DNA of 59,786 nt, counting the filler. It is 5 parts of 5 records of this genome, joined end to end, with 100 filler letters (N's around TTAATTAATTAA, not from the genome) between each part and the next. Parts side by side here need not be neighbours in the genome. Positions count along the whole stretch, not along the records: positions 1 to 25,459 come from SRR31156797_3792; 4 more parts are not named here. One strand, 5' to 3'. Position 1 is the stretch's first letter. Each line of letters starts with the position of its first letter. Of the stretch, positions 6,283 through 43,273 are shown in pieces. Made by a program: the position numbers and the translations under genes. The notes beneath the pieces were generated by a model, which saw only the letters and a program-made list of their open reading frames with translations, did not search any database and was not told where the DNA came from.

Positions 6283-8664
6283 ATGAAATACTTAAACTTC
6301 ATCCTCACAGCAACTTTCCTGTTTCTTTTTATTTCAGGTTTCGCCCAGCACGACCATTCAAAATGCGGCCACAAAATGGGTTTCGACCGCTCACTGATCA
6401 GCGATACGCTGGATGCGCTGAGTTACGAAATCCATCTCACCGATGTAAATACAGACGACCAAACCATTGAGGCACATACCAAAGTAATGCTGGCTTCAAA
6501 AGTTGATAACCTCAACCAGGTAACCCTCGAACTCCTTGATCTGACTGTTAATCAGGTTTTGGTAAACGGTTCAAACAATGATTTCACACAGGAAAACCCG
6601 TTTTTGTATGTCCCGTTTTCCAACCCTATAAATACCGGCGATGAAGTGGAAGTTGAGGTTTACTACCAGGGGTCCCCTTTCCACGAAGGCTGGGGGGGCT
6701 TCCACTGGAACGGCGATTATGCCTTTAATCTGGGTGTAGGGTTTGAGTCTGATCCGCACAACCTCGGCAAGGCCTGGTTTCCCTGCATCGACGATTTTCA
6801 CGACAGGGCGCTTTATGAAATTTTTACTACGGTTGATAACCCTAAAAAAGCGGTTTGCGGCGGAACTTTGATGAACGTGATCGACAATGGTAACGGTACT
6901 TCCACATACCACTGGAAACTCAATATTGAAATCCCTACCTACCTGGCCTCCGTTGCGGTTGGTGAATACGAGGAGGTTTCATGGTCGTTCAATTCCATGA
7001 GTGGCGATGAAATCCCCATCAATATTTTTGTGAGGCCTGCGGATACTGCCAAAGTCGAAGGTTCTTTTGCAACCCTGGTGGAGGTGCTGGAGGCTTTCGA
7101 GAGCAGTTTCGGGCCTTATGCCTGGGAACGTGTGGGCTATGTGGGTACGGCCATCGGGGCTATGGAACATGCCACCAATATTGCATACCCCAATTTTAGC
7201 ATCAACGGAAATCTGGCCAATGAATCCTTAATGGCCCATGAGTTATCGCACATGTATTTTGGCGATCTTGTTACCTGTGCCTCTGCCGAAGATATGTGGC
7301 TCAACGAGGGTTGGGCTGTTTTTTGTGAAGCCCGCTATCGCGAGGTTTTGTATGGGTATGGTGCCTATTATTCCAACATGTACAACCGCCACCGCGATGT
7401 GTTGCGCATTGGCCACGTAGCCGATGGCGGCTATTTTGCGGTCTCAGGTATCCCAACAGAAATTACCTATGGAAATACCGTCTATCAAAAAGGTGCTTTG
7501 ATGGTTCATACGCTGAGGAATTACATGGGCGACGACCTGTTTTTTCCGGCTGTGAAAGCCTATGTACAGGAGTTCTACAACGATTACGCCTCTTCGTGGG
7601 ATTTGCGGGATTTCCTCTCCGACCATTCCGGGATGGACCTCACAGGTTTTTTTGATGCCTGGATTTTTACGCCCGGATTCCCGGAATATTCTGTGGATTC
7701 GTTCAATGTGGTTCCCAACGGAAACAATTTTGATGTAACCGTTTTTGCCAAACAAAAGCACAAAGGCCCGGGTGAACTTGGTGACGATATCAGGGTTGAA
7801 GTGACACTGATGGATGAGGCCTGGAATCAGGAAACATATTTGATGGAGTTTTCCGGCGAAACCGGCCAACAAACTTTTACTTCATCCATCAATCCCGAAA
7901 TGGTGATGATGGATTTGAACGACAAAGTTGCTGATGCTACCACCGACCGTATGATAACGCCTTCTGGACCTTTCAATAACAGTTTTTCAACAGAGCTGTA
8001 TTGTTCGCTTGGCGCAGAAGAGTTTCCTGCTGATGACTCAGCATTTATCAGAATTACACACCGCTGGGTGGCTCCGGATCCCATAAAAAATCCAATTCCC
8101 GGAATTACCATTTCTGATTATCACCACTGGCGTTTCGATGGTATTTTACCACAAGGCCTGGTGTTGAACGGCAAATTGAATTATAGCGCCAATGGCAATC
8201 TGGATGATGGCATCCTCACGGATCCCAACGACTCCATCGGGATATTGTACCGTCCCAATCGGCTGGCCGACTGGCAGCCCATTGAAGCCTCCAGGATCGG
8301 ATCGTTTTATGTGGGATTTTTCACACTTCCTGAAATGCCGCTGGGCGAATATACCCTGGCAGTTTGGGACGATGTTTACGTAGGCATTGAGGAAGAGCAA
8401 ACCCCGATGATTTCTGAAGGTAAAGAAGTGAAAATGTTTCCGAATCCCGCAGGAGATGAGATTTCGATCATACTTGGCCAGCGAAATGCTACAAACATTC
8501 AGGTTTTTGACAGTAGCGGAAATCTGGTTGATGAAATGCATAATGAGCAAAAGCTGAAAGGCCTGCGATACGATTCGTCGAAGTTGGGTAACGGAACATA
8601 TATTTTCAAATTCATGGATCAGAATGGCCTTGAAATTGAAAGCCACAAAATTGTAATTAATTGA
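6283..8664 (+). CDS. M1 family aminopeptidase with T9SS sorting domain
   Basis: GAMEH motif, HELSH...WLNEG zinc site, AWFPCID; signal peptide; C-terminal FPNPA...GTYIF...KIVIN. Confidence 0.92.
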   Translation: MKYLNFILTATFLFLFISGFAQHDHSKCGHKMGFDRSLISDTLDALSYEIHLTDVNTDDQTIEAHTKVMLASKVDNLNQVTLELLDLTVNQVLVNGSNNDFTQENPFLYVPFSNPINTGDEVEVEVYYQGSPFHEGWGGFHWNGDYAFNLGVGFESDPHNLGKAWFPCIDDFHDRALYEIFTTVDNPKKAVCGGTLMNVIDNGNGTSTYHWKLNIEIPTYLASVAVGEYEEVSWSFNSMSGDEIPINIFVRPADTAKVEGSFATLVEVLEAFESSFGPYAWERVGYVGTAIGAMEHATNIAYPNFSINGNLANESLMAHELSHMYFGDLVTCASAEDMWLNEGWAVFCEARYREVLYGYGAYYSNMYNRHRDVLRIGHVADGGYFAVSGIPTEITYGNTVYQKGALMVHTLRNYMGDDLFFPAVKAYVQEFYNDYASSWDLRDFLSDHSGMDLTGFFDAWIFTPGFPEYSVDSFNVVPNGNNFDVTVFAKQKHKGPGELGDDIRVEVTLMDEAWNQETYLMEFSGETGQQTFTSSINPEMVMMDLNDKVADATTDRMITPSGPFNNSFSTELYCSLGAEEFPADDSAFIRITHRWVAPDPIKNPIPGITISDYHHWRFDGILPQGLVLNGKLNYSANGNLDDGILTDPNDSIGILYRPNRLADWQPIEASRIGSFYVGFFTLPEMPLGEYTLAVWDDVYVGIEEEQTPMISEGKEVKMFPNPAGDEISIILGQRNATNIQVFDSSGNLVDEMHNEQKLKGLRYDSSKLGNGTYIFKFMDQNGLEIESHKIVIN

Positions 8665-9436: not shown

Positions 9437-10114
9437 ATGCATCCATTCATTCAAAAAATACGATTGGCATACCAGGAAAAGGCCAACCCGGAGATTGCTG
9501 CCCAGCAAAAAGCGTATATGCGAAACCAGTATGAATTTTTCGGGCTGAAGGCACCTGTGCAAAAAGAACTCATGCGTGAGTTTATAAAAACACACGGCAT
9601 GCCGGCAATCGAAGAAATCAGGACGATCATCCGGGAACTTTGGCAGCAGCCTGAGCGGGAAATGCAAAATTTTGGGATGTTGCTCCTGGAAAAGTATATC
9701 AGGAATGCTGACGCCGGTATGATCAGTCTGCTCGAATTTATGATCACAACTAAATCCTGGTGGGATACGGTGGATATGATTGCGGCAAGGTTGGTAGGCG
9801 TCCATTTTAAAAGGTTTCCCAAACAAATTCCGGTTTACACAGAAAAGTGGATGCAATCGGGGGATTTCTGGCTACAGCGCACGGCATTGCTGTTTCAACT
9901 GAAATATAAAAAAGAGACCGACACGGTTTTGCTATTCAACCTTATTGAGCGGCTGGCTCACGAAGATGAGTTCTTTATCCGGAAAGCCATTGGCTGGGTG
10001 TTGCGTGAATATTCCAAAACCGATCCTGAGGCGGTAATTAATTTTGTTAATTTACATGAATTAAAGCCACTGAGCAGAAAGGAAGCTTTGAAGGTTATCG
10101 AACGCAAAAAGTGA
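9437..10114 (+). CDS. DNA alkylation repair protein (AlkD-like)
   Basis: AYMRNQYEFFG, SWWDTVD, EFFIRKAIGWVLREYSK. Confidence 0.9.
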   Translation: MHPFIQKIRLAYQEKANPEIAAQQKAYMRNQYEFFGLKAPVQKELMREFIKTHGMPAIEEIRTIIRELWQQPEREMQNFGMLLLEKYIRNADAGMISLLEFMITTKSWWDTVDMIAARLVGVHFKRFPKQIPVYTEKWMQSGDFWLQRTALLFQLKYKKETDTVLLFNLIERLAHEDEFFIRKAIGWVLREYSKTDPEAVINFVNLHELKPLSRKEALKVIERKK

Positions 10115-10135
10115 AAGGATTAAAGTTTGGTTTCT

Positions 10136-10285
10136 GAAAGTCCTTCGAAAAAGTGTGGCATTCCACAAAAAGTCCTTTGGAAAAATGTGATATTACACAG
10201 AAAGTCCTTTGTAAAAGTGTAATATTTTACAAAAAGACCTTTGAAAAAATGTAACATTCTACAAAAAGACCTTTGAAAAAATGTA
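10136..10285 (+). repeat. tandem array of ~4.7 imperfect 32-bp units
   Basis: Units start at 10136, 10168, 10200, 10232, 10264; consensus approx RAAAGWCCTTTGAAAAARTGTRAYATTHYACA. Confidence 0.92.
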
Positions 10286-10307
10286 TTTTTGTGAAAATTT
10301 CTAAGTA

Positions 10308-11636
10308 ATGATAAGGCAAAAATTACAAGATTTATTGGCCTGGAAAAACTCTGCTAACCGTAAACCGATGATTATCAGGGGGGCAAGACAGGTTGGTAAA
10401 ACATGGCTCATGAAAGAGTTTGGGAAAGTAAACTATGCCCAAATCGTTTATGTTAACTTTGAAAAAAATAGTCGGCTTAAAGCGATATTTGATGATGATT
10501 TTGATATTCCCCGAATAATCCTGGCATTACAAATAGAGACCGCCTTGAAAATTGATAAAAGCAATACCCTGATTATTCTAGACGAAATCCAGGAAGTTCC
10601 GAAGGCAATCACAGCGCTCAAATACTTTTGTGAGGATGCACCGCAATATCACATAATCGCAGCCGGATCTTTACTGGGATTGGCTTTGCATTCAAATATC
10701 TCTTTTCCTGTGGGTAAAGTAGAGTTGCTGGATTTATATCCATTAAATTTCATTGAATTTCTTGGGGCTTTAAATGAGGATGCGCTAATTGATTTATTAA
10801 ATTCTTCTGACTGGAAATTAGTTACAGCCTATAAGTCTAAATATATCGATTTACTAAAGCAATATTATTTTGTTGGTGGCATGCCGGAGGTGGTATCGGA
10901 GTATGTTGAGAACAAGGATTTTTTACATGTTCGTAAAATTCAAAAACAAATATTAAATGCCTACGACCAGGATTTTTCCAAGCATGCTCCTTTTGCAATT
11001 GTTCCCCGAATCCGAATGATATGGAATTCAATCCCATCACAACTGGCAAAAGAAAACAGAAAATTCATTTATGGTTTGATAAAAGAGGGTTCAAGGGCTA
11101 AGGATTATGAATTGGCGCTTAACTGGCTCACCGACTGTGGTCAGGTGAAGCAGATAAAACGCATATCAAAGCCGGGTATGCCGCTCAAAGCTTATGAAGA
11201 TCAAAGTGCTTTTAAATTATTTGTAGTTGATGTGGGGTTATTGGTAGCTATGGGCGATATAGATTCTAAAACTATCCTGGAAGGAAATAAAATTTTTAGT
11301 GAGTTTAAAGGGGCAATAACTGAGCAGTATGCGCTTCAACAATTAATAAGTTTTGATAAGTTCGTAATAAATTACTGGACATCTGACCGGTCAACAGCCG
11401 AAGTGGATTTTGTTTTGCAATATAAAGGAAATAGTTTTCCGCTCGAAGTAAAAGCAAAAGAAAACCTTCAAGCTAAAAGTCTAAAAGTTTATCACGAAAA
11501 GTTCCATCCTAAAATTAGTATTCGTACATCAATGGCTGATTATCGGGAGCAGGAATGGATGGCAAGTTTACCGCTCTATGCTTTAAGCCTGATACATGAA
11601 TTGATGGATAAGTTTTTGGACTTTAATAAAAAATAG
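10308..11636 (+). CDS. AAA_14 / DUF4143 ATP-binding protein
   Basis: Walker A GARQVGKT, Walker B ILDEIQ, AAGSLL, GGMPE, C-terminal YW..AEVDFV..PLEVK. Confidence 0.9.
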   Translation: MIRQKLQDLLAWKNSANRKPMIIRGARQVGKTWLMKEFGKVNYAQIVYVNFEKNSRLKAIFDDDFDIPRIILALQIETALKIDKSNTLIILDEIQEVPKAITALKYFCEDAPQYHIIAAGSLLGLALHSNISFPVGKVELLDLYPLNFIEFLGALNEDALIDLLNSSDWKLVTAYKSKYIDLLKQYYFVGGMPEVVSEYVENKDFLHVRKIQKQILNAYDQDFSKHAPFAIVPRIRMIWNSIPSQLAKENRKFIYGLIKEGSRAKDYELALNWLTDCGQVKQIKRISKPGMPLKAYEDQSAFKLFVVDVGLLVAMGDIDSKTILEGNKIFSEFKGAITEQYALQQLISFDKFVINYWTSDRSTAEVDFVLQYKGNSFPLEVKAKENLQAKSLKVYHEKFHPKISIRTSMADYREQEWMASLPLYALSLIHELMDKFLDFNKK

Positions 11637-11779
11637 CCTTATCCTATGAAAGATTTTGATTAAAGAAAAACGATAGTCATATTGTCTAATAAAATACTGA
11701 ATATATTAAACATTTCTATATTAAGCCTGTTTTAATTCAATAATGCTTATTTTCAAAAAGCTATTTTTGCACGAAATTT

Positions 11780-13132
11780 ATGCATGTAATGAGCCAGAAC
11801 AAAATTATACCGGGTTTCTCAAAAATGAATAAGCATGCCAAGCTGGAACTGGTAGCCAGCAGGTTTGGCAATGCTGAGGAGGTGATTGAATCACTCAAAA
11901 GTTTTTGGCACGAAGATCCGGCTAAGCAAAAATTATTCGACGAATTCAGCGAAAACACCATATCCAACTTTTATTTCCCATACGGCGTTGCACCTAATTT
12001 TAACATCAACGGTAAAATGTACCTCGTCCCGATGGTCATCGAAGAAAGCTCTGTGGTTGCGGCTGCTTCCAACGGGGCGAAATTCTGGGCCGCGAAAAGC
12101 GGTTTTATCAGCGAGGTTGTGTCAACCACCAAGGTTGGCCAGGTGCATTTCATATGGAAAGGTGAAGTGGAAAAATTGCAGGCTCTGTTCCCCGGTTTGA
12201 AAGAAGAATTGCTAACGGGAACACGTCATCTCACCGAAAACATGGATCAGCGTGGAGGGGGAATTATAGATATTGAGCTGGTTGACATGACCAACGAAAT
12301 CGAAAACTATTTTCAGCTGAAAGCAACTTTCGAAACGGTGGATGCCATGGGTGCGAATTTCATCAATTCATGCCTGGAGGATTTTGCGGAAATACTCAAA
12401 AATCATTTCGCCGAAAATGAACATTATGAAGGTGAGGAACAAAACTGCCGGGTCATCATGGCGATACTTTCTAACTACACACCGGAATGCCTGGTAAAAA
12501 CGCATGTGGAATGTTCAGTTGAATGCCTGAGAAAGGATGGTGAAATTGACGATCCGGAGGATTTTGCATGGAAATTCGAAAAAGCCGTGCAGATTGCCCG
12601 TGTTGACCCACACCGTGCTGCAACACACAACAAGGGCATTTTTAATGGGATTGACGCTGTGGCCCTCGCTACCGGTAACGACTTTCGCGCCATTGAGGCA
12701 GGTGGGCATGCCTACGCAGCCCGAGATGGCAAATACCGTTCACTTACCGATGTTGATATTTTAAACGGAAAATTTAAATACAGCCTCACCGTACCCTTGT
12801 CTTTAGGCACTGTGGGTGGTCTTACAGCATTACACCCGCTGGCCAGTTTTTCATTAAAGCTTTTGGAAAATCCAACGGCAAGGGAGTTGATGATGATTGC
12901 TGCTTCTGTAGGTTTGGCAAACAATTTCGGGGCCCTGAAATCATTGGTAACCAAAGGTATTCAAGTGGGGCACATGAAAATGCACTTACTGAATATCCTC
13001 AATTCGTTTGACGTAAACGAACGCGAAAAAAAGCTGGCGGTAGCACATTTTACCAACCGAAAGGTGTCGTACACATCCGTGAAGAAGTATATTGATAGTG
13101 TTAGGAAAGAAGTTGGTGTAGAAAAAGTCTGA
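11780..13132 (+). CDS. mvaA: class II hydroxymethylglutaryl-CoA reductase
   Basis: ENTIS, EESSVVAAAS, DAMGAN, RAATHNKGIFNG, GIQVGHMKMH; start may be ATG 11789. Confidence 0.92.
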   Translation: MHVMSQNKIIPGFSKMNKHAKLELVASRFGNAEEVIESLKSFWHEDPAKQKLFDEFSENTISNFYFPYGVAPNFNINGKMYLVPMVIEESSVVAAASNGAKFWAAKSGFISEVVSTTKVGQVHFIWKGEVEKLQALFPGLKEELLTGTRHLTENMDQRGGGIIDIELVDMTNEIENYFQLKATFETVDAMGANFINSCLEDFAEILKNHFAENEHYEGEEQNCRVIMAILSNYTPECLVKTHVECSVECLRKDGEIDDPEDFAWKFEKAVQIARVDPHRAATHNKGIFNGIDAVALATGNDFRAIEAGGHAYAARDGKYRSLTDVDILNGKFKYSLTVPLSLGTVGGLTALHPLASFSLKLLENPTARELMMIAASVGLANNFGALKSLVTKGIQVGHMKMHLLNILNSFDVNEREKKLAVAHFTNRKVSYTSVKKYIDSVRKEVGVEKV

Positions 13133-21308: not shown

Positions 21309-22550
21309 TCAAAGTTTTAAAATCTGGAGACAGCTATCATCATAATTATGAGATAATATTTTGAAATCATAATTGGGATAAGTCTCCACAAATTTTTTAA
21401 TTCCTGCGTTTTTCCTTGATGGGCAGGAATATTTTATTTCATATGCAAGCGTTGCAAAAGGGCTATTCACAACAAAATCTATTTCTTTTTGGTCGGTCGT
21501 TCGCCAAAAATACAGATCGTCGGCAGTGTATTTTTCCGATAGCCTCTTAAATGCATAGTTTTCGAGTAACAGGCCCTTATCTTCTCTATTGTCAGGATGA
21601 TTAAATCTGTTAATCAAAACATTGAGCATCCCGTTGTCATAAAAAAAGACTTTAGGCATTTTTGTCAATTCCTTGCGGAGGTTTCCTGAAAATGGTTTCA
21701 AGAGTTCAACATGAAAGCATTTCCTCAGAATCGTAATGTACCGGTCGATTGTTTTATTGTCGACACCAAGTGTGTTCGATAATTCATTTTTATTGAGCAA
21801 ATTACCGGATTGACTGGCAAGAACCGCACAAAGCTTATAAAACAAATCCTGATTTGAAACCCCTGATTCATCTATATCTCTTTTCAAAAATGAATTCTTT
21901 AATTCTTTCAGGATTTCCAGTTTTTCCAGTTTATTATCTTCCAAAGCCACAGCCGGATAGCCGCCATATATTAAATATTGGTCGAACACCTGAAGCATTT
22001 CTTCTTTTTGTGAAGAAATAAATTCGGGGCGTTCTCTCATTTCCATTAGGATTTTTGATAAATCCTCCCGATCAATGAAATTCAAATATTCTTGAAAACT
22101 CAGTGTTTGTAAATTGAAAATTCTTTTTCGCCCAGCAAGCGAATCTGTAAACTTCGAATCAATATAAAATGCACTGCTTCCGGTAGCTACGATTTTTAAA
22201 TTGTCAAGATATTTATCAAATAAGTATTTAAGAAAATTGGACGGATCTTTTGCATATTGGATTTCATCAACAAAAATTACAATACGTTGATTTTGAGTTG
22301 CTGACTTCAAAGGGTCAGCCGGCCTGCTCACATACTTGAATATATTTTCCGGGCTTTCATTAATGTCTCTGAGAATATCAGCATTTTCAAAAGACAGATA
22401 AAACGCATTGTCTGATTTTTTGCTCAGTTCCTTAAAAAGTTGAAGGATAATGGTTGTTTTGCCTGTTTGACGTGCACCGGCAATAATGGTGTATTCTTTT
22501 TTGGAAAGATGTTTTTTGATTTTTGAGAATATGGTTCTTTCTTTAAACAT
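21309..22550 (-). CDS. AAA_14 / DUF4143 ATP-binding protein
   Basis: GARQTGKT, FVDEIQ, ATGSS, YGGYP, C-terminal FWRT..KEIDFVV..YEIK. Confidence 0.9.
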   Translation of the reverse strand: MFKERTIFSKIKKHLSKKEYTIIAGARQTGKTTIILQLFKELSKKSDNAFYLSFENADILRDINESPENIFKYVSRPADPLKSATQNQRIVIFVDEIQYAKDPSNFLKYLFDKYLDNLKIVATGSSAFYIDSKFTDSLAGRKRIFNLQTLSFQEYLNFIDREDLSKILMEMRERPEFISSQKEEMLQVFDQYLIYGGYPAVALEDNKLEKLEILKELKNSFLKRDIDESGVSNQDLFYKLCAVLASQSGNLLNKNELSNTLGVDNKTIDRYITILRKCFHVELLKPFSGNLRKELTKMPKVFFYDNGMLNVLINRFNHPDNREDKGLLLENYAFKRLSEKYTADDLYFWRTTDQKEIDFVVNSPFATLAYEIKYSCPSRKNAGIKKFVETYPNYDFKILSHNYDDSCLQILKL

Positions 22551-22573
22551 AAGCAATCAATTTGTGCAAAGTT

Positions 22574-22680
22574 ACCAAAAAAATGGATTTTTTTAGACTG
22601 TAACTCCAAAAATATCGGATAATATTGGGATTGTTATCCAAAAATATCGGATAATATTGGAGTTATACTCCCACATTATC
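22574..22680 (-). repeat. 32-bp-period direct repeat (two identical 24-mers plus degenerate flanks)
   Basis: TCCAAAAATATCGGATAATATTGG at 22605 and 22637; degenerate copies near 22574 and 22669. Confidence 0.85.
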
Positions 22681-22731: not shown

Positions 22732-23427
22732 TCAGGAAAGCTTTGAAATCAAATCAGCCCGATAGCTTTTACCCACGTGTATTTCGATGCCTTTCACAAT
22801 TACCTCTGATGTTGAAAAGCTCTCAATTTTTTCGCGGTTGACCAAATAGCTGCGGTGCACCCTGATGAACATCCCGGGTGGCAGTTTCTGCTCCATGCTC
22901 ACAAGTCGGTCATAGATATCCAGTTTGGTTTTGGGAGTATGAATCCGGATAAAATCATCCATACTTTCAATGAACAGAATATCATGTATAAGAACTTTAT
23001 GGAATTTCTTATCAGCCTTTACAATGATAAAATCCTGCTGATCCTGCAAACTTTCGGAATTTGAAACTGGGCTCACTGAATGGTAAAACCTGTTGACAGC
23101 TTTCAGGAAACGGTCAAAAGGTATGGGCTTAAGCAGGTAATCCAAAACCTGGAAATCAAAAGCGTTGGCAGCATAATCGCGATGGGCTGTTGTGATGACG
23201 ACCTGTGGTTTTGTGTCCATGCTTTTCAACAGGCCAAATCCGGTAATTGCCGGCATTTCAATATCAAGGAATAAAAGGTCGGCGTGGTTGTTGGCAAGGA
23301 ACTGCAAAGCTTCCAAAGGATCTGTGAAACTGGCTGCTACATGTATATTGGAGATTTGTTCCAGGTGTTTCCGGATAACCTCAATGGCAATGGGTTCGTC
23401 GTCGATGATTACACAACTATATTCCAT
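22732..23427 (-). CDS. LytTR family response regulator
   Basis: IIDDE, FLDIEMP, DYLLKP receiver; FIRVHRSYLVN LytTR domain. Confidence 0.95.
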   Translation of the reverse strand: MEYSCVIIDDEPIAIEVIRKHLEQISNIHVAASFTDPLEALQFLANNHADLLFLDIEMPAITGFGLLKSMDTKPQVVITTAHRDYAANAFDFQVLDYLLKPIPFDRFLKAVNRFYHSVSPVSNSESLQDQQDFIIVKADKKFHKVLIHDILFIESMDDFIRIHTPKTKLDIYDRLVSMEQKLPPGMFIRVHRSYLVNREKIESFSTSEVIVKGIEIHVGKSYRADLISKLS

Positions 23428-24499
23428 GGTTTTGATCAGTATGTATTTTGTCGAGATGGATGATCAGTTCAAAGCTGTACAATTCTTCTCCTTCCAATAT
23501 TTTCAGCGTGTGCCGGTTTTCATATAAAATATTCAACCTTTCTTTCAGATTTTTAATACCCAGGCCTTTCACCTCTGTTTGTCGGCCGCCTTTAATAAAT
23601 GTATTTGAAGCACTGAAATGTAGTATATCCTTTTCAATTTTGCCTTTAATCTCAATTTTAGGGGATTGCTTAGCCGTGTGTTTAACATGTTTAAAACAGT
23701 TTTCGCAAACCGGTAAAAGCAAAAGTGGGGCGATCATGTACCTATCCTGATTTTCAGGCCATTCAATGTTTAAGTCAAGATTCTCATCAAATTTTTGTTT
23801 TTCCAGAGCAACGTAATCTGTCAGAAATGTGATCTCATTTTCCAGTATTACCAGCTCATCATTACAGCGATATAGCATGTAGTCGAGCATGTTCGACAGG
23901 TTGATGACAAGGTCGGGTGTTTTTTCTGATTTTTTCAGGCTATGGCCATAAATCAAATTCAGGGAGTTGAACAGCATATGTGGGTGCAACTGGTTTTGAA
24001 GCATTTTTAACCTGGTTTCCTTTAGCTTTAATTCGGTTGAAATTTCTTTTTGTTTCAACCGGTAATTCTGTTCCTGCTTTTTAAAGGTTTCTCTCACAAA
24101 GTGAATGGCAACGCCAATCAAAACTGCTAGATACAAGCCGGCCGAAACATAAAAAATATCAAATGTGGTTTTGGGCATCTCAGAAAGATCGAACTCCCAT
24201 GTTTTGATAAAGGTGAACACAGAGAGGAGGGTATTCAGCCAGAGGGAAACCATTATGATGGCAATGAGAAAATAAAAGAATTTGTAATAGATTCTCCTGA
24301 AAAGAAACCGTGGAATCAACCAGTAGTTTATGGTGTAGGTGGTTAGGATAACCAAAGGCAGCTGTAGGCAAACATAAAACAATGCGTTAAATGAATCGCT
24401 CGTGAAATGCCCGAAAAACAAAGATAAAAACACGAGTACCAGGAACCAGTAGGTGATGTGAATAAGTAATTTGTATTTATCCTTCCGGAAATGCATCAA
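23417..24499 (-). CDS. LytS/YehU-type sensor histidine kinase
   Basis: TM region, QLHPHMLFNSLN, ENCFKH, GLGIKNLKERL. Confidence 0.93.
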   Translation of the reverse strand: MMHFRKDKYKLLIHITYWFLVLVFLSLFFGHFTSDSFNALFYVCLQLPLVILTTYTINYWLIPRFLFRRIYYKFFYFLIAIIMVSLWLNTLLSVFTFIKTWEFDLSEMPKTTFDIFYVSAGLYLAVLIGVAIHFVRETFKKQEQNYRLKQKEISTELKLKETRLKMLQNQLHPHMLFNSLNLIYGHSLKKSEKTPDLVINLSNMLDYMLYRCNDELVILENEITFLTDYVALEKQKFDENLDLNIEWPENQDRYMIAPLLLLPVCENCFKHVKHTAKQSPKIEIKGKIEKDILHFSASNTFIKGGRQTEVKGLGIKNLKERLNILYENRHTLKILEGEELYSFELIIHLDKIHTDQNHGI

Positions 24500-42193: not shown

Positions 42194-43273
42194 GTGGATG
42201 GAATAATGACGAACAGGAGTGAAAAGATGGGTATGACAGGGAGATCTTGGTTGCGATCGCTGATGGCGATCTCCGGACTGATTCTGATGGTGGTTCTTCT
42301 GCCGGGCCGGGGGTGGGGCGAGGTTCGCACCCTCGAGGACATGGCCGGGCGCACCGTGACCCTGACCCGGGAGGTGAACCGGATCGTCACCACCTTCAAG
42401 CCGTCCTCCCTTTGTCTGTTCTCCCTGGGGCTCCAGGAGAAGCTTGTGGGCATCGACACCAGTTCCAAGCGGGACCGGTTGCTCAAGGCGGTGATGCCCG
42501 GGCTGTCAAAGGTGGCAGGGGTGGGAAGCAAATCCACCGGCATCAATTTTGAAACCGTGGTGGCCCTGAAATCCGACCTTGTGATCCTCTATGCCCAGAA
42601 AAACGGCCTTGAGCTTGCCAACCGGCTGGAGGTGATGGGCATTCAAAGCATCATTATTTTGCCCGAAAGCTTTGACAGCGTGATTACCTCCCTTGAAATC
42701 ATTGCCGCGGCCGCAGGGGTGCCGGAGCAGGCCGGGAAGGTTGAGGCGGCCATGGCCCGCGTGCTCGACATGGTCGAGAAACGGGTGGCAACCCTTGCTG
42801 CCGACCGCCGGAAGACCGGCTACTTCGCTTCTCCCAGGGGTTTTTTCAGCACGGCCACCGGCAGCATGCTCCAGGACGAGATCTTCACACGGGCCGGGGT
42901 GATCAACGTGGGCCACGACCTTGACGGCTACTTCCAGGATATCTCGCCGGAGCAGTTCATGACCTGGAACCCGGACATGGTGATCCTGTCCCAGCACCTT
43001 CACCAGCGGGTGGACAAACAGCTCAACGATCCCGCCCTCAAGCGGGTGACCGCCATTGCCCAAAAAGCCGTGTACCGCTCTCCCAGTGACCTTGCCCCCT
43101 GGGATTTCCCCTCTCCCCTGGCCGTGCTTGGCACCCTGTGGCTTGCCAACAGGGCCTATCCCGGGCTCTTTGACGGGATTGACATGAATCGTGAGATCGA
43201 CCTTTTTCACATCCGTCTGTTCGGCAAATCCCTGGGCGACATGAACGGCAATATCAACGACCAGGTGTATTAA
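42194..43273 (+). CDS. ABC substrate-binding protein (Peripla_BP_2, iron-chelate/cobalamin type)
   Basis: DMAGRTVTL..RIV, INFETVVALKSDLVI, ISPEQFMTWNPDMVI, WDFPSP; exact start uncertain. Confidence 0.9.
   Translation: MDGIMTNRSEKMGMTGRSWLRSLMAISGLILMVVLLPGRGWGEVRTLEDMAGRTVTLTREVNRIVTTFKPSSLCLFSLGLQEKLVGIDTSSKRDRLLKAVMPGLSKVAGVGSKSTGINFETVVALKSDLVILYAQKNGLELANRLEVMGIQSIIILPESFDSVITSLEIIAAAAGVPEQAGKVEAAMARVLDMVEKRVATLAADRRKTGYFASPRGFFSTATGSMLQDEIFTRAGVINVGHDLDGYFQDISPEQFMTWNPDMVILSQHLHQRVDKQLNDPALKRVTAIAQKAVYRSPSDLAPWDFPSPLAVLGTLWLANRAYPGLFDGIDMNREIDLFHIRLFGKSLGDMNGNINDQVY

Follow-up and report, generated by a model that had tools for sequence, protein, structure and literature searches.

A tandem 32-bp array fused to the promoter of a PDC-S01 ATPase-nuclease gene: a candidate operator for the gene's own product

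What purpose do head-to-tail 32-bp units serve when they fill the space before an AAA_14/DUF4143 ATPase-nuclease gene, and which protein, if any, reads them? The locus lies in a stretch of 59,786 nucleotides joined from five parts and analysed here as a whole (the window), in the part taken from record SRR31156797_3792 (positions 1 to 25,459). Comparison with homologous loci leads us to propose that the array is probably a cognate operator array read by the product of the gene it precedes and, with somewhat less assurance, that the effect of this reading is repression. The product matches the Pfam families AAA_14 (PF13173; amino acids 18 to 152, E-value 3.1e-30) and DUF4143 (PF13635; amino acids 221 to 383, 2.6e-35), and the PADLOC profile PDLC04786 of the defence candidate PDC-S01 covers amino acids 1 to 431 with an E-value of 5e-185. 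The array, promoter, and gene are arranged as follows, with each core placed by a position weight matrix (PWM) match at the given distance from the ATG and each linker by its sequence and its identity across loci.

10133..10156, plus strand: core 1, TCTGAAAGTCCTTCGAAAAAGTGT, the most distal and most degenerate (PWM match at -175)
10157..10164, plus strand: variable linker 1, GGCATTCC
10165..10188, plus strand: core 2, ACAAAAAGTCCTTTGGAAAAATGT (PWM match at -143)
10189..10196, plus strand: variable linker 2, GATATTAC
10197..10220, plus strand: core 3, ACAGAAAGTCCTTTGTAAAAGTGT (PWM match at -111)
10221..10228, plus strand: variable linker 3, AATATTTT
10229..10252, plus strand: core 4, ACAAAAAGACCTTTGAAAAAATGT (PWM match at -79)
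10253..10260, plus strand: variable linker 4, AACATTCT
10261..10284, plus strand: core 5, promoter-proximal, same sequence as core 4 (PWM match at -47)
10284..10291, plus strand: Bacteroidota-type -7 box, TATTTTTG, recognised by its sequence, with 16 nt between the box and the ATG at 10308
10308..11636, plus strand: AAA_14/DUF4143 gene, 442 amino acids, PADLOC candidate PDC-S01, by domain and profile matches

Tandem Repeats Finder places 4.7 head-to-tail units with a period of 32 at 10137-10285 (84% matches, no insertions or deletions, score 179), and the runner-up among its 19 rows for the window scores 49. A degenerate unit pattern matches the window five times, always on the plus strand within 10137-10295, and is absent from 100 dinucleotide-preserving shuffles, while a repeat search returns four 64-nt copies at the array with spacings of 32, 32, and 32. 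An AAAG-nn-CTTT dyad is present in all five units (as the variant CTTC in unit 1), and a TGT-N8-ACA dyad is present in the four full units. The final T of core 5 is the first base of the -7 box, so that TAnnTTTG, which we take from the Bacteroides promoter literature to be the -7 consensus, begins at offset 23 from the core start. A preliminary description, made from the sequence alone, had reported about 4.7 abutting units, both dyads, and the run of the array into a -7 box 16 nt ahead of the ATG, and all three observations are borne out. A scan for sigma-70 promoters across 9900-11900 gave fewer promoter-like sites than shuffled sequences and none at the array, and a terminator scan of the same segment gave a single terminator-like hairpin (minus strand; 1.3 expected).

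The same arrangement recurs upstream of homologous genes. All 7996 candidates scored in a protein search had E-values of 0.001 or lower, and among the 120 matches listed, identity to the focal protein was 67 to 89%, with many matches on short contigs. A contig scan matched at least 600 stretches, 598 of which were confirmed; the best 80 loci (L001-L080; 56 to 68% protein identity) formed the survey, and counts over 81 sequences comprise these loci and the window. The 80 loci are labelled as Bacteroidota, Chlorobiota, Clostridia and other Bacillota, Anaerolineae, Spirochaetota, Bifidobacteriaceae, Verrucomicrobia, Desulfovibrio, and Thermoguttaceae, which amounts to at least nine phyla in all. 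Over such distances, protein identity of 56 to 68% is uncommonly high, a sign of frequent horizontal spread of the array together with the gene; array, promoter, and gene are best explained as a single self-contained module that passes from genome to genome in one piece.

Inspection by eye of the 230 nt before each start revealed tandem units resembling the focal ones in most loci. A matrix built from the five units of the window gave, at 12 bits, 51 gene-strand matches in the 400 bp upstream of the start in 30 of the 80 loci and 31 matches on both strands of the remaining 769 kb, an approximately 80-fold upstream excess per base and strand. A refined matrix gave 129 upstream matches in 67 of the 81 sequences and 27 matches elsewhere; having been trained on upstream matches, it is circular as a measure of enrichment and useful for mapping. 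By this matrix, the sequences contain zero (13 loci), one (17), two (34), three (16), or five copies (1, the window), and the starts of successive units are 32 bp apart in 32 cases, 33 bp in 37, and 110 bp in one; i.e., 69 of 70 spacings are 32 or 33 bp. Motif-free tests on 77 upstream regions (four loci with less than about 200 nt of upstream sequence each were omitted) agree. Autocorrelation over the whole region has its peak at a lag of 32 or 33 in 38 of the 77 upstream regions, in 3 of 72 far-upstream controls, and in 3 of 77 coding controls. The best ungapped self-match has a lag of 32, 33, or 64 in 57 of the 77 regions and in 5 of the 72 controls, and with a score of at least 14 the counts are 32 of 77 and 0 of 72. 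Periodicity of about 32 bp upstream of homologues, which the preliminary description had proposed as a test, is therefore strongly evident in the spacings, the autocorrelation, the self-matches, and the distant relatives described below. In L038 (4586-4730), the units are located at -415, -382, and -272 rather than adjoining the start, and the intervening DNA holds GC-rich direct repeats (GAGCGGCACTGCGGA...), which suggests an insertion.

Comparison of neighbouring units across the loci divides each unit into a conserved 24-bp core and a variable linker of 8 to 9 bp. Core positions 5 to 24 are mostly 70 to 100% identical between adjacent units (78 to 100% for the TGT, 94 to 100% for the C of the TC), whereas linker positions are 27 to 57% identical, which is near random for AT-rich DNA. 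The core consensus is about ACAAAAAGTCGTTTGAAAAAATGT. In this frame, the TGT...ACA dyad is the end of one core meeting the start of the next across the linker. Linkers of 8 bp show weak dyad pairing, with values of 0.50 and 0.53 at the outer two positions against 0.35 and 0.31 (standard deviation, 0.08), and linkers of 9 bp show none. A CRISPR array was considered and rejected, as the variable part is only 8 to 9 bp and the units abut, against unique spacers of about 25 to 40 bp.

The promoter-proximal core differs from the others. Core positions 17 to 21 form an A-run in 58 of 68 upstream (non-proximal) units, whereas a T-run occupies these positions in 20 of 50 proximal units (17 of 29 in the 33-bp class) and 4 of the 68 upstream units. 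The T-run makes the proximal core palindromic, of the type ACAAAAAGTC....GACTTTTTGT, which is perfect in L010; the window's own proximal unit is not palindromic.

The core is also joined to the promoter in a fixed register. In 25 of 68 loci, a TAnnnT hexamer (TATAAT in 10, TATACT in 9, TATGCT in 3, TATGAT in 2, and TAAATT in 1) begins precisely 34 nt after the proximal core starts, and core positions 12 to 17 read TTGTAA, TTGTAT, or TTGCAT, so that the core itself supplies a -35 hexamer with a 17-nt spacer. In 7 of the 68 loci, including the window, TAnnTTTG is located at offset 23, and the last T of the core TGT opens the -7 box. It is hard to explain why one core should be welded in fixed register to two promoter architectures unless occupancy of the core matters for RNA polymerase. 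In L076 (4906-5000) and on the Segatella copri plasmid NZ_CP085933.1 (approximately 43000-43125), a -7-like box precedes the array or falls within it, and some units would thus be transcribed; where units lie past such a box, the operator may act as a roadblock.

More distant relatives keep the period and change the sequence of the unit. A tblastn search for plasmid-borne relatives gave 59 records, and 12 loci were picked (27 to 55% identity to the focal protein), one per distinct organism or identity group among the 40 listed. In nine of these loci, the best self-match has a lag of 32, 33, 64, or 66 and a score above those of all 30 shuffles; the other three are L084, L087, and L091. The units differ from those of the window and from each other (Criblamydia L086, Segatella L088, Agathobacter L089, and Prevotella L090), and those of Acinetobacter L085 and Collinsella L083 are palindromic. 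Five of 12 phage-labelled records were analysed (30 to 57% identity), and all five show a lag of 33 above the shuffle maximum, marginally so in L096 (12.5 versus 10.0). On the S. copri plasmid, the paralogue at 23442 is preceded by three units and that at 43125 by three units of another sequence, both with a 33-bp period, and no units were found at the two further paralogues of this plasmid. The four paralogues (L098-L101) stand among genes with defence-type annotations (WYL, DUF262, Qat, NACHT, HipA, and VapC), whereas the focal gene of the window sits between housekeeping genes. Of four short paralogues that adjoin a focal-type gene, L002 shows a lag of 32 and the other three do not. Altogether, the period is kept in 17 of 25 distant relatives, and the relatives with changed unit sequences are 26 to 57% identical to the focal protein.

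The window itself contains a second example on the same record.

21309..22550, minus strand: second AAA_14/DUF4143 paralogue, 413 amino acids counted from the ATG at 22550, with 26% identity to the focal protein across 217 amino acids
22565..22660, minus strand: array of 32-bp period before the second paralogue, units starting at 22660, 22628, and 22596, the third degenerate
22567..22574, minus strand: -7 box, TAACTTTG, fused to the third unit and 16 nt ahead of the ATG at 22550, by sequence

The unit of this second array is a palindromic 23-mer, CCAATATTATCCGATATTTTTGG, unrelated to the focal core, and the array has a self-match score of 24 at lag 32 against a maximum of 12.5 among 100 shuffles. 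Part of it appeared as a period-10 repeat in Tandem Repeats Finder, and a LytTR-type response regulator gene (22732-23427, minus strand) lies directly upstream. Two paralogues in one cell that share the period and the promoter fusion and differ in unit sequence point to a reader that is specific to each paralogue. To judge from these sequence comparisons, the unit diverges with the protein and not with the host.

These observations bear on the alternative that no dedicated protein is involved, i.e., that duplicated promoter-upstream DNA, as phased A-tracts that resemble UP elements or are bound by nucleoid proteins, tunes or silences an AT-rich acquired gene. The units are indeed rich in A-tracts with a phase of about three helical turns, the gene has a higher AT content than its neighbours, and the TTTG and TTGTAA of the cores resemble promoter elements. 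Against this stands the recurrence of the same core at 56 to 68% protein identity across phyla that differ in promoter types and nucleoid proteins. In addition, the best-conserved positions (TC and TGT) are outside the A-tracts, the units of L088, L094, and L095 are not based on A-tracts, and paralogues in the same cell have unrelated units with the same period. We consider this alternative distinctly improbable.

The conserved elements of the protein are as follows.

10380..10403, plus strand: Walker A motif GARQVGKT, amino acids 25 to 32, invariant in 42 homologues
10581..10586, plus strand: Walker B residues D92-E93, invariant in 42 homologues
10995..11195, plus strand: putative winged-helix region, approximately amino acids 230 to 296, from the AlphaFold2 secondary structure, with inferred limits
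11400..11453, plus strand: PD-(D/E)xK-type motif E365-V-D367 ... E380-V-K382, by conservation

The AlphaFold2 model, built from a 42-sequence alignment, has a mean predicted local distance difference test score (pLDDT) of 87.6 and a predicted template modelling score of 0.88. In a Foldseek search of the PDB, the top matches are the archaeal AAA+/winged-helix ATPases 2qen (E-value 1.9e-8) and 2fna (4.8e-8), followed by the STAND NTPases NRC4, CED-4, Apaf-1, and Avs3; Orc1/Cdc6 proteins bound to origin DNA are also found (2v1u, 1.7e-6; 2qby, 9.7e-6; template modelling (TM) scores of 0.27 to 0.32). The alignments span 386 to 391 columns with low TM scores (0.27 to 0.53), as expected if the domain orientations differ. 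In the model, helices 232-246 and 262-276 and the strand 280-286 form a helix-helix-strand segment, and amino acids 230 to 296 are accordingly assigned to a putative winged helix. No Orc1/Cdc6 or Rep family is matched by sequence, as Pfam gives AAA_14 and DUF4143 only; a sequence search of the PDB with the family profile gave no match at an E-value of 1 or lower, and nothing in NCBIfam comes near the cut-offs. TniB of Pfam is matched weakly, as are nSTAND families in the paralogues, and the focal protein has none of the C-terminal repeat sensors (TPR, LRR, or WD40) that accompany the NOD module of STAND NTPases.

The C-terminal EVD..EVK pattern had been likened to PD-(D/E)xK nucleases in the preliminary description, and the conservation agrees: E365, E380, V381, and K382 do not vary among the 42 homologues, and conservation of D367 is 90% or more. 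A model of the C-terminal fragment has a pLDDT of 71, with the winged-helix part below 50 in isolation, and its marginal fold matches (E-values of 3e-3 to 0.1) are almost all PD-(D/E)xK nucleases (McrC, AvaII, DdmD, Can2, and EcoT38I). The Pfam NERD family is weakly matched by 19 of the 42 members, and DUF4143 is listed in the PD-(D/E)XK superfamily in a published paper (PMC3424549). A homodimer prediction with two copies of the protein scored 0.00 without controls and counts neither for nor against an assembly.

The mechanism that we envisage starts from the period. As 32 to 33 bp correspond to about three helical turns, all cores face the same side of the DNA and would form phased sites in an operator bound by the protein encoded immediately downstream. 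The cores alone would be read, the 8- to 9-bp linkers being passed over, and the AAA+/winged-helix/nuclease protein would contact each core through its putative winged helix, perhaps with an additional AAA+ contact as in Orc1. Protomers placed on one face of the DNA would favour cooperative head-to-tail contacts, and occupancy could then spread from the distal units to the proximal unit, where it would shut the protein's own promoter. The proximal core overlaps the contact region of RNA polymerase, since it occupies the DNA immediately upstream of the -7 box and touches the box in the Bacteroidota type of promoter and contains the -35 hexamer in the Firmicutes type; an occupied proximal core would block the polymerase and give negative autoregulation, with the distal units sharpening the set point. 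Such a circuit would keep the amount of a potentially toxic ATPase-nuclease low and constant. More speculatively, the nucleotide state of the protein or a signal from an invader might couple release from the array to activation of the nuclease. The preliminary description had suggested an iteron-like platform serving autoregulation, sequestration or sensing in defence, or mobility; the autoregulatory part of this suggestion fits the period, the promoter fusion, the divergence of the unit with the protein, and the differences between paralogues, as far as sequence comparison can tell, while sequestration or sensing in defence is purely conjectural and the part concerning mobility is unsupported (see below).

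Several points weigh against this operator reading. Its support is wholly comparative. The winged helix rests on a predicted model, and the STAND NTPases, in which the equivalent domain does not bind DNA, match the same fold. No Pfam helix-turn-helix (HTH) family matches the focal subfamily; the second paralogue has a weak HTH_11 match. Mutual information linking columns of the protein to the variable positions of the core is enriched in no domain, with means of 0.131 for the winged helix and 0.122 to 0.133 for the others, in a test that is uninformative with 65 related sequences. In L076 and at the S. copri paralogue 43125, units lie downstream of a -7-like box. Nor is the trait universal, as 8 of the 25 distant relatives lack a lag of 32 or 33 and 13 of the 81 sequences lack a matrix match. 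As for sequences of the latter kind, divergent arrays are visible by eye in L010, L027, L030, L041, L070, and L079, and L040 has two units 1.6 kb upstream, with an IS110-family transposase gene (392 amino acids, opposite strand) in between (L040 3333-5000). The contig of L055 begins inside the gene, leaving no upstream sequence, and L074 has 74 nt upstream.

The number of units raises a further alternative, in which the array is an assembly or storage platform. Protomers would polymerise head-to-tail on it and be held inactive until a signal from an invader, or titration, releases or licenses the nuclease, and autoregulation would be a by-product. Orc1 and DnaA polymerise on origin boxes in this manner. 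The enrichment, the period, and the division into core and linker are shared with the operator reading; arrays have two to five units although a single site over the promoter would be enough for repression, the fold is like that of Orc1/Cdc6 and of the oligomerising STAND NTPases, and the family is a defence candidate. On the other hand, most arrays have two units (34 of 81), which would make a small store, and sequence does not separate such a platform from plain cooperative autorepression. The defence role of PDC-S01 is moreover that of a candidate, with protection unvalidated according to the open text of PMC12988326. On balance, we regard the platform as unlikely. In a bolder and quite unlikely extension, PDC-S01 proteins would be sequence-specific, Orc1/Cdc6-like DNA-loading ATPase-nucleases that polymerise on private, co-evolving three-turn arrays. 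The array would then be not just an operator but a resting dock that sets the dose and keeps the nuclease licensed off, and loss of occupancy, or competition from invading replicons that bear the repeats, would switch the nuclease on.

The focal gene lies between a DNA_alkylation (alkD-like) gene (9437-10114) on the 5' side of the array and an HMG-CoA reductase gene (11780-13132) on its 3' side, confirming the location between alkD and mvaA given in the preliminary description, and is more AT-rich than its neighbours, as also stated there: its GC content is 36.6%, and 0.35 at third codon positions, against 42 to 47% and 0.43 to 0.52. The 193-nt gap between alkD and the ATG is occupied by the array, and the 143 nt past the focal stop contain no plausible open reading frame (ORF), which leaves no room for a further gene in the inserted segment. 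Before the HMG-CoA reductase start, the segment 11750-11769 (TTTTCAAAAAGCTATTTTTG) is 80% identical over 20 nt to 10272-10291, i.e., to the array end and the -7 box; this likeness may be an ordinary promoter resemblance or a trace of module insertion. An M1 peptidase gene with a Por_Secre_tail (type IX secretion) sorting domain (6283-8664) supports a Bacteroidota origin of the window.

According to the mobility alternative, the repeats are an element end, a recombination site, or origin-like iterons through which the ATPase-nuclease moves or copies the module. The spread of the gene across phyla at high identity, often on short contigs, its AT-rich composition between housekeeping genes, the Orc1/Cdc6-like fold, and the weak TniB matches all agree with it. 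A matrix scan of the loci, however, found nothing that resembles a unit, in any orientation, directly downstream of the gene; outside the upstream regions, the 27 matches are scattered singletons, except for displaced arrays in L038 and L040. No convincing terminal, direct, or inverted repeats flank the inserted segment in the window, and arrays are present on large chromosomal contigs. An all-against-all comparison of 881 flanking ORFs (at least 80 amino acids, within 4 kb, 81 loci) revealed no conserved partner gene and no integrase or transposase conserved nearby; the largest clusters are ABC-type ATPases in 11 of the 81 loci (with no fixed side or strand), two-component regulators in 7, and a DUF4143 paralogue in 4. 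As units are absent from the far end of the gene and terminal repeats are lacking, the mobility role is not upheld, and we judge it very improbable.

The repeats might, finally, act as RNA, in a structured leader or a small RNA, a proposal to which we give scarcely any credence. In its favour, the minus strand of the array has a slightly more stable fold than its shuffled versions (z = -2.3; equalled by 3 of 200), and a few loci have units downstream of a -7-like box. The plus strand gives z = -1.5, and neither value is convincing; an Rfam scan of 9500-12500 at E-values up to 1 matched no family beyond a chance-level microRNA (E-value 0.68; 23 bits, where the gathering score is 62.6). Compensatory pairing in the linker is slight or absent (none at 9 bp, the outer two positions only at 8 bp), and in most loci the promoter hexamers are located at the last unit or beyond it, so that in these the array is not part of the mRNA.

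We therefore retain the cognate operator as the probable function of the array. PDC-S01 is described as ranking fourth in frequency among the defence candidates of prokaryotes and as the single locus seen most often in rumen genomes (PMC12988326 and PMC13356809, open text). The open text of PMC12988326 deals with abundance, phylogeny, and the make-up of ATPase and PD-(D/E)xK domains. The open-access text of papers on PDC-S01, DUF4143, and COG1373 describes no upstream repeats or regulation, and no prior report of iteron-like or 32/33-bp arrays in phage defence was found in open-access text. A conserved period, a private sequence, and fusion to the promoter would give the family its first concrete, testable molecular handle. 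The array predicts a DNA-binding specificity and a regulatory circuit, offers natural orthogonal pairs of protein and site (two in the window alone), and would explain how a one-gene module can enter hosts that differ in promoter type and arrive with regulation of its own; it could also be used as a search signature for annotating the family. If the resting-dock version were true, it would amount to a new logic of immune control in a one-gene module that crosses phylum boundaries.

The arrangement resembles several known systems. As in the plasmid iterons and Rep proteins of pPS10, F, and pSC101, phased direct repeats adjoin the gene of the presumed binder, and the repeat sequence is private to each protein variant; a palindromic site at the rep promoter is the arrangement for Rep autorepression, and a palindromic proximal unit over the promoter is seen here in 20 of 50 arrays, the window not among them. 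The units described here, however, are 32 to 33 bp long, against about 22 bp in iterons, an AAA+/winged-helix/PD-(D/E)xK fusion takes the place of a WH1-WH2 Rep, and the genes are single chromosomal genes with no indicated part in replication and no sign of an origin, though no search was made for DnaA boxes or an unwinding element. Archaeal Orc1/Cdc6 shares the AAA+ and winged-helix fold, as far as the model goes, and a gene located beside repeated boxes of a few tens of bp. It differs in that the focal protein belongs to AAA_14 rather than to the Orc1/Cdc6 families of Pfam and has an extra C-terminal nuclease domain, and in that the boxes here are strictly tandem, promoter-fused, and present in many copies per genome.

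Tandem short repeats at the promoter of the binder's operon are likewise found in parC/ParR of plasmid R1 and in tubC/TubR, where cooperative coating gives autorepression. Those units are 11 to 12 bp, are bound by small ribbon-helix-helix or HTH adaptors, and serve partition, whereas the units here span three turns and the protein is an ATPase-nuclease without a partner gene. The proposed binding at the promoter of a defence-type gene recalls BrxR/CapW and RptR, which are separate small regulators acting on single inverted repeats; no separate regulator gene is present here, and the site is a multi-unit array of direct repeats. Each of the likened systems (iteron/Rep, parC/ParR, and Orc1/Cdc6) fails on a defining feature, be it the protein family, the unit length, or the replicon or origin role, and the group that the focal protein does fit, by its profile and by both domains, is PDC-S01 (AAA_14 and DUF4143, COG1373).

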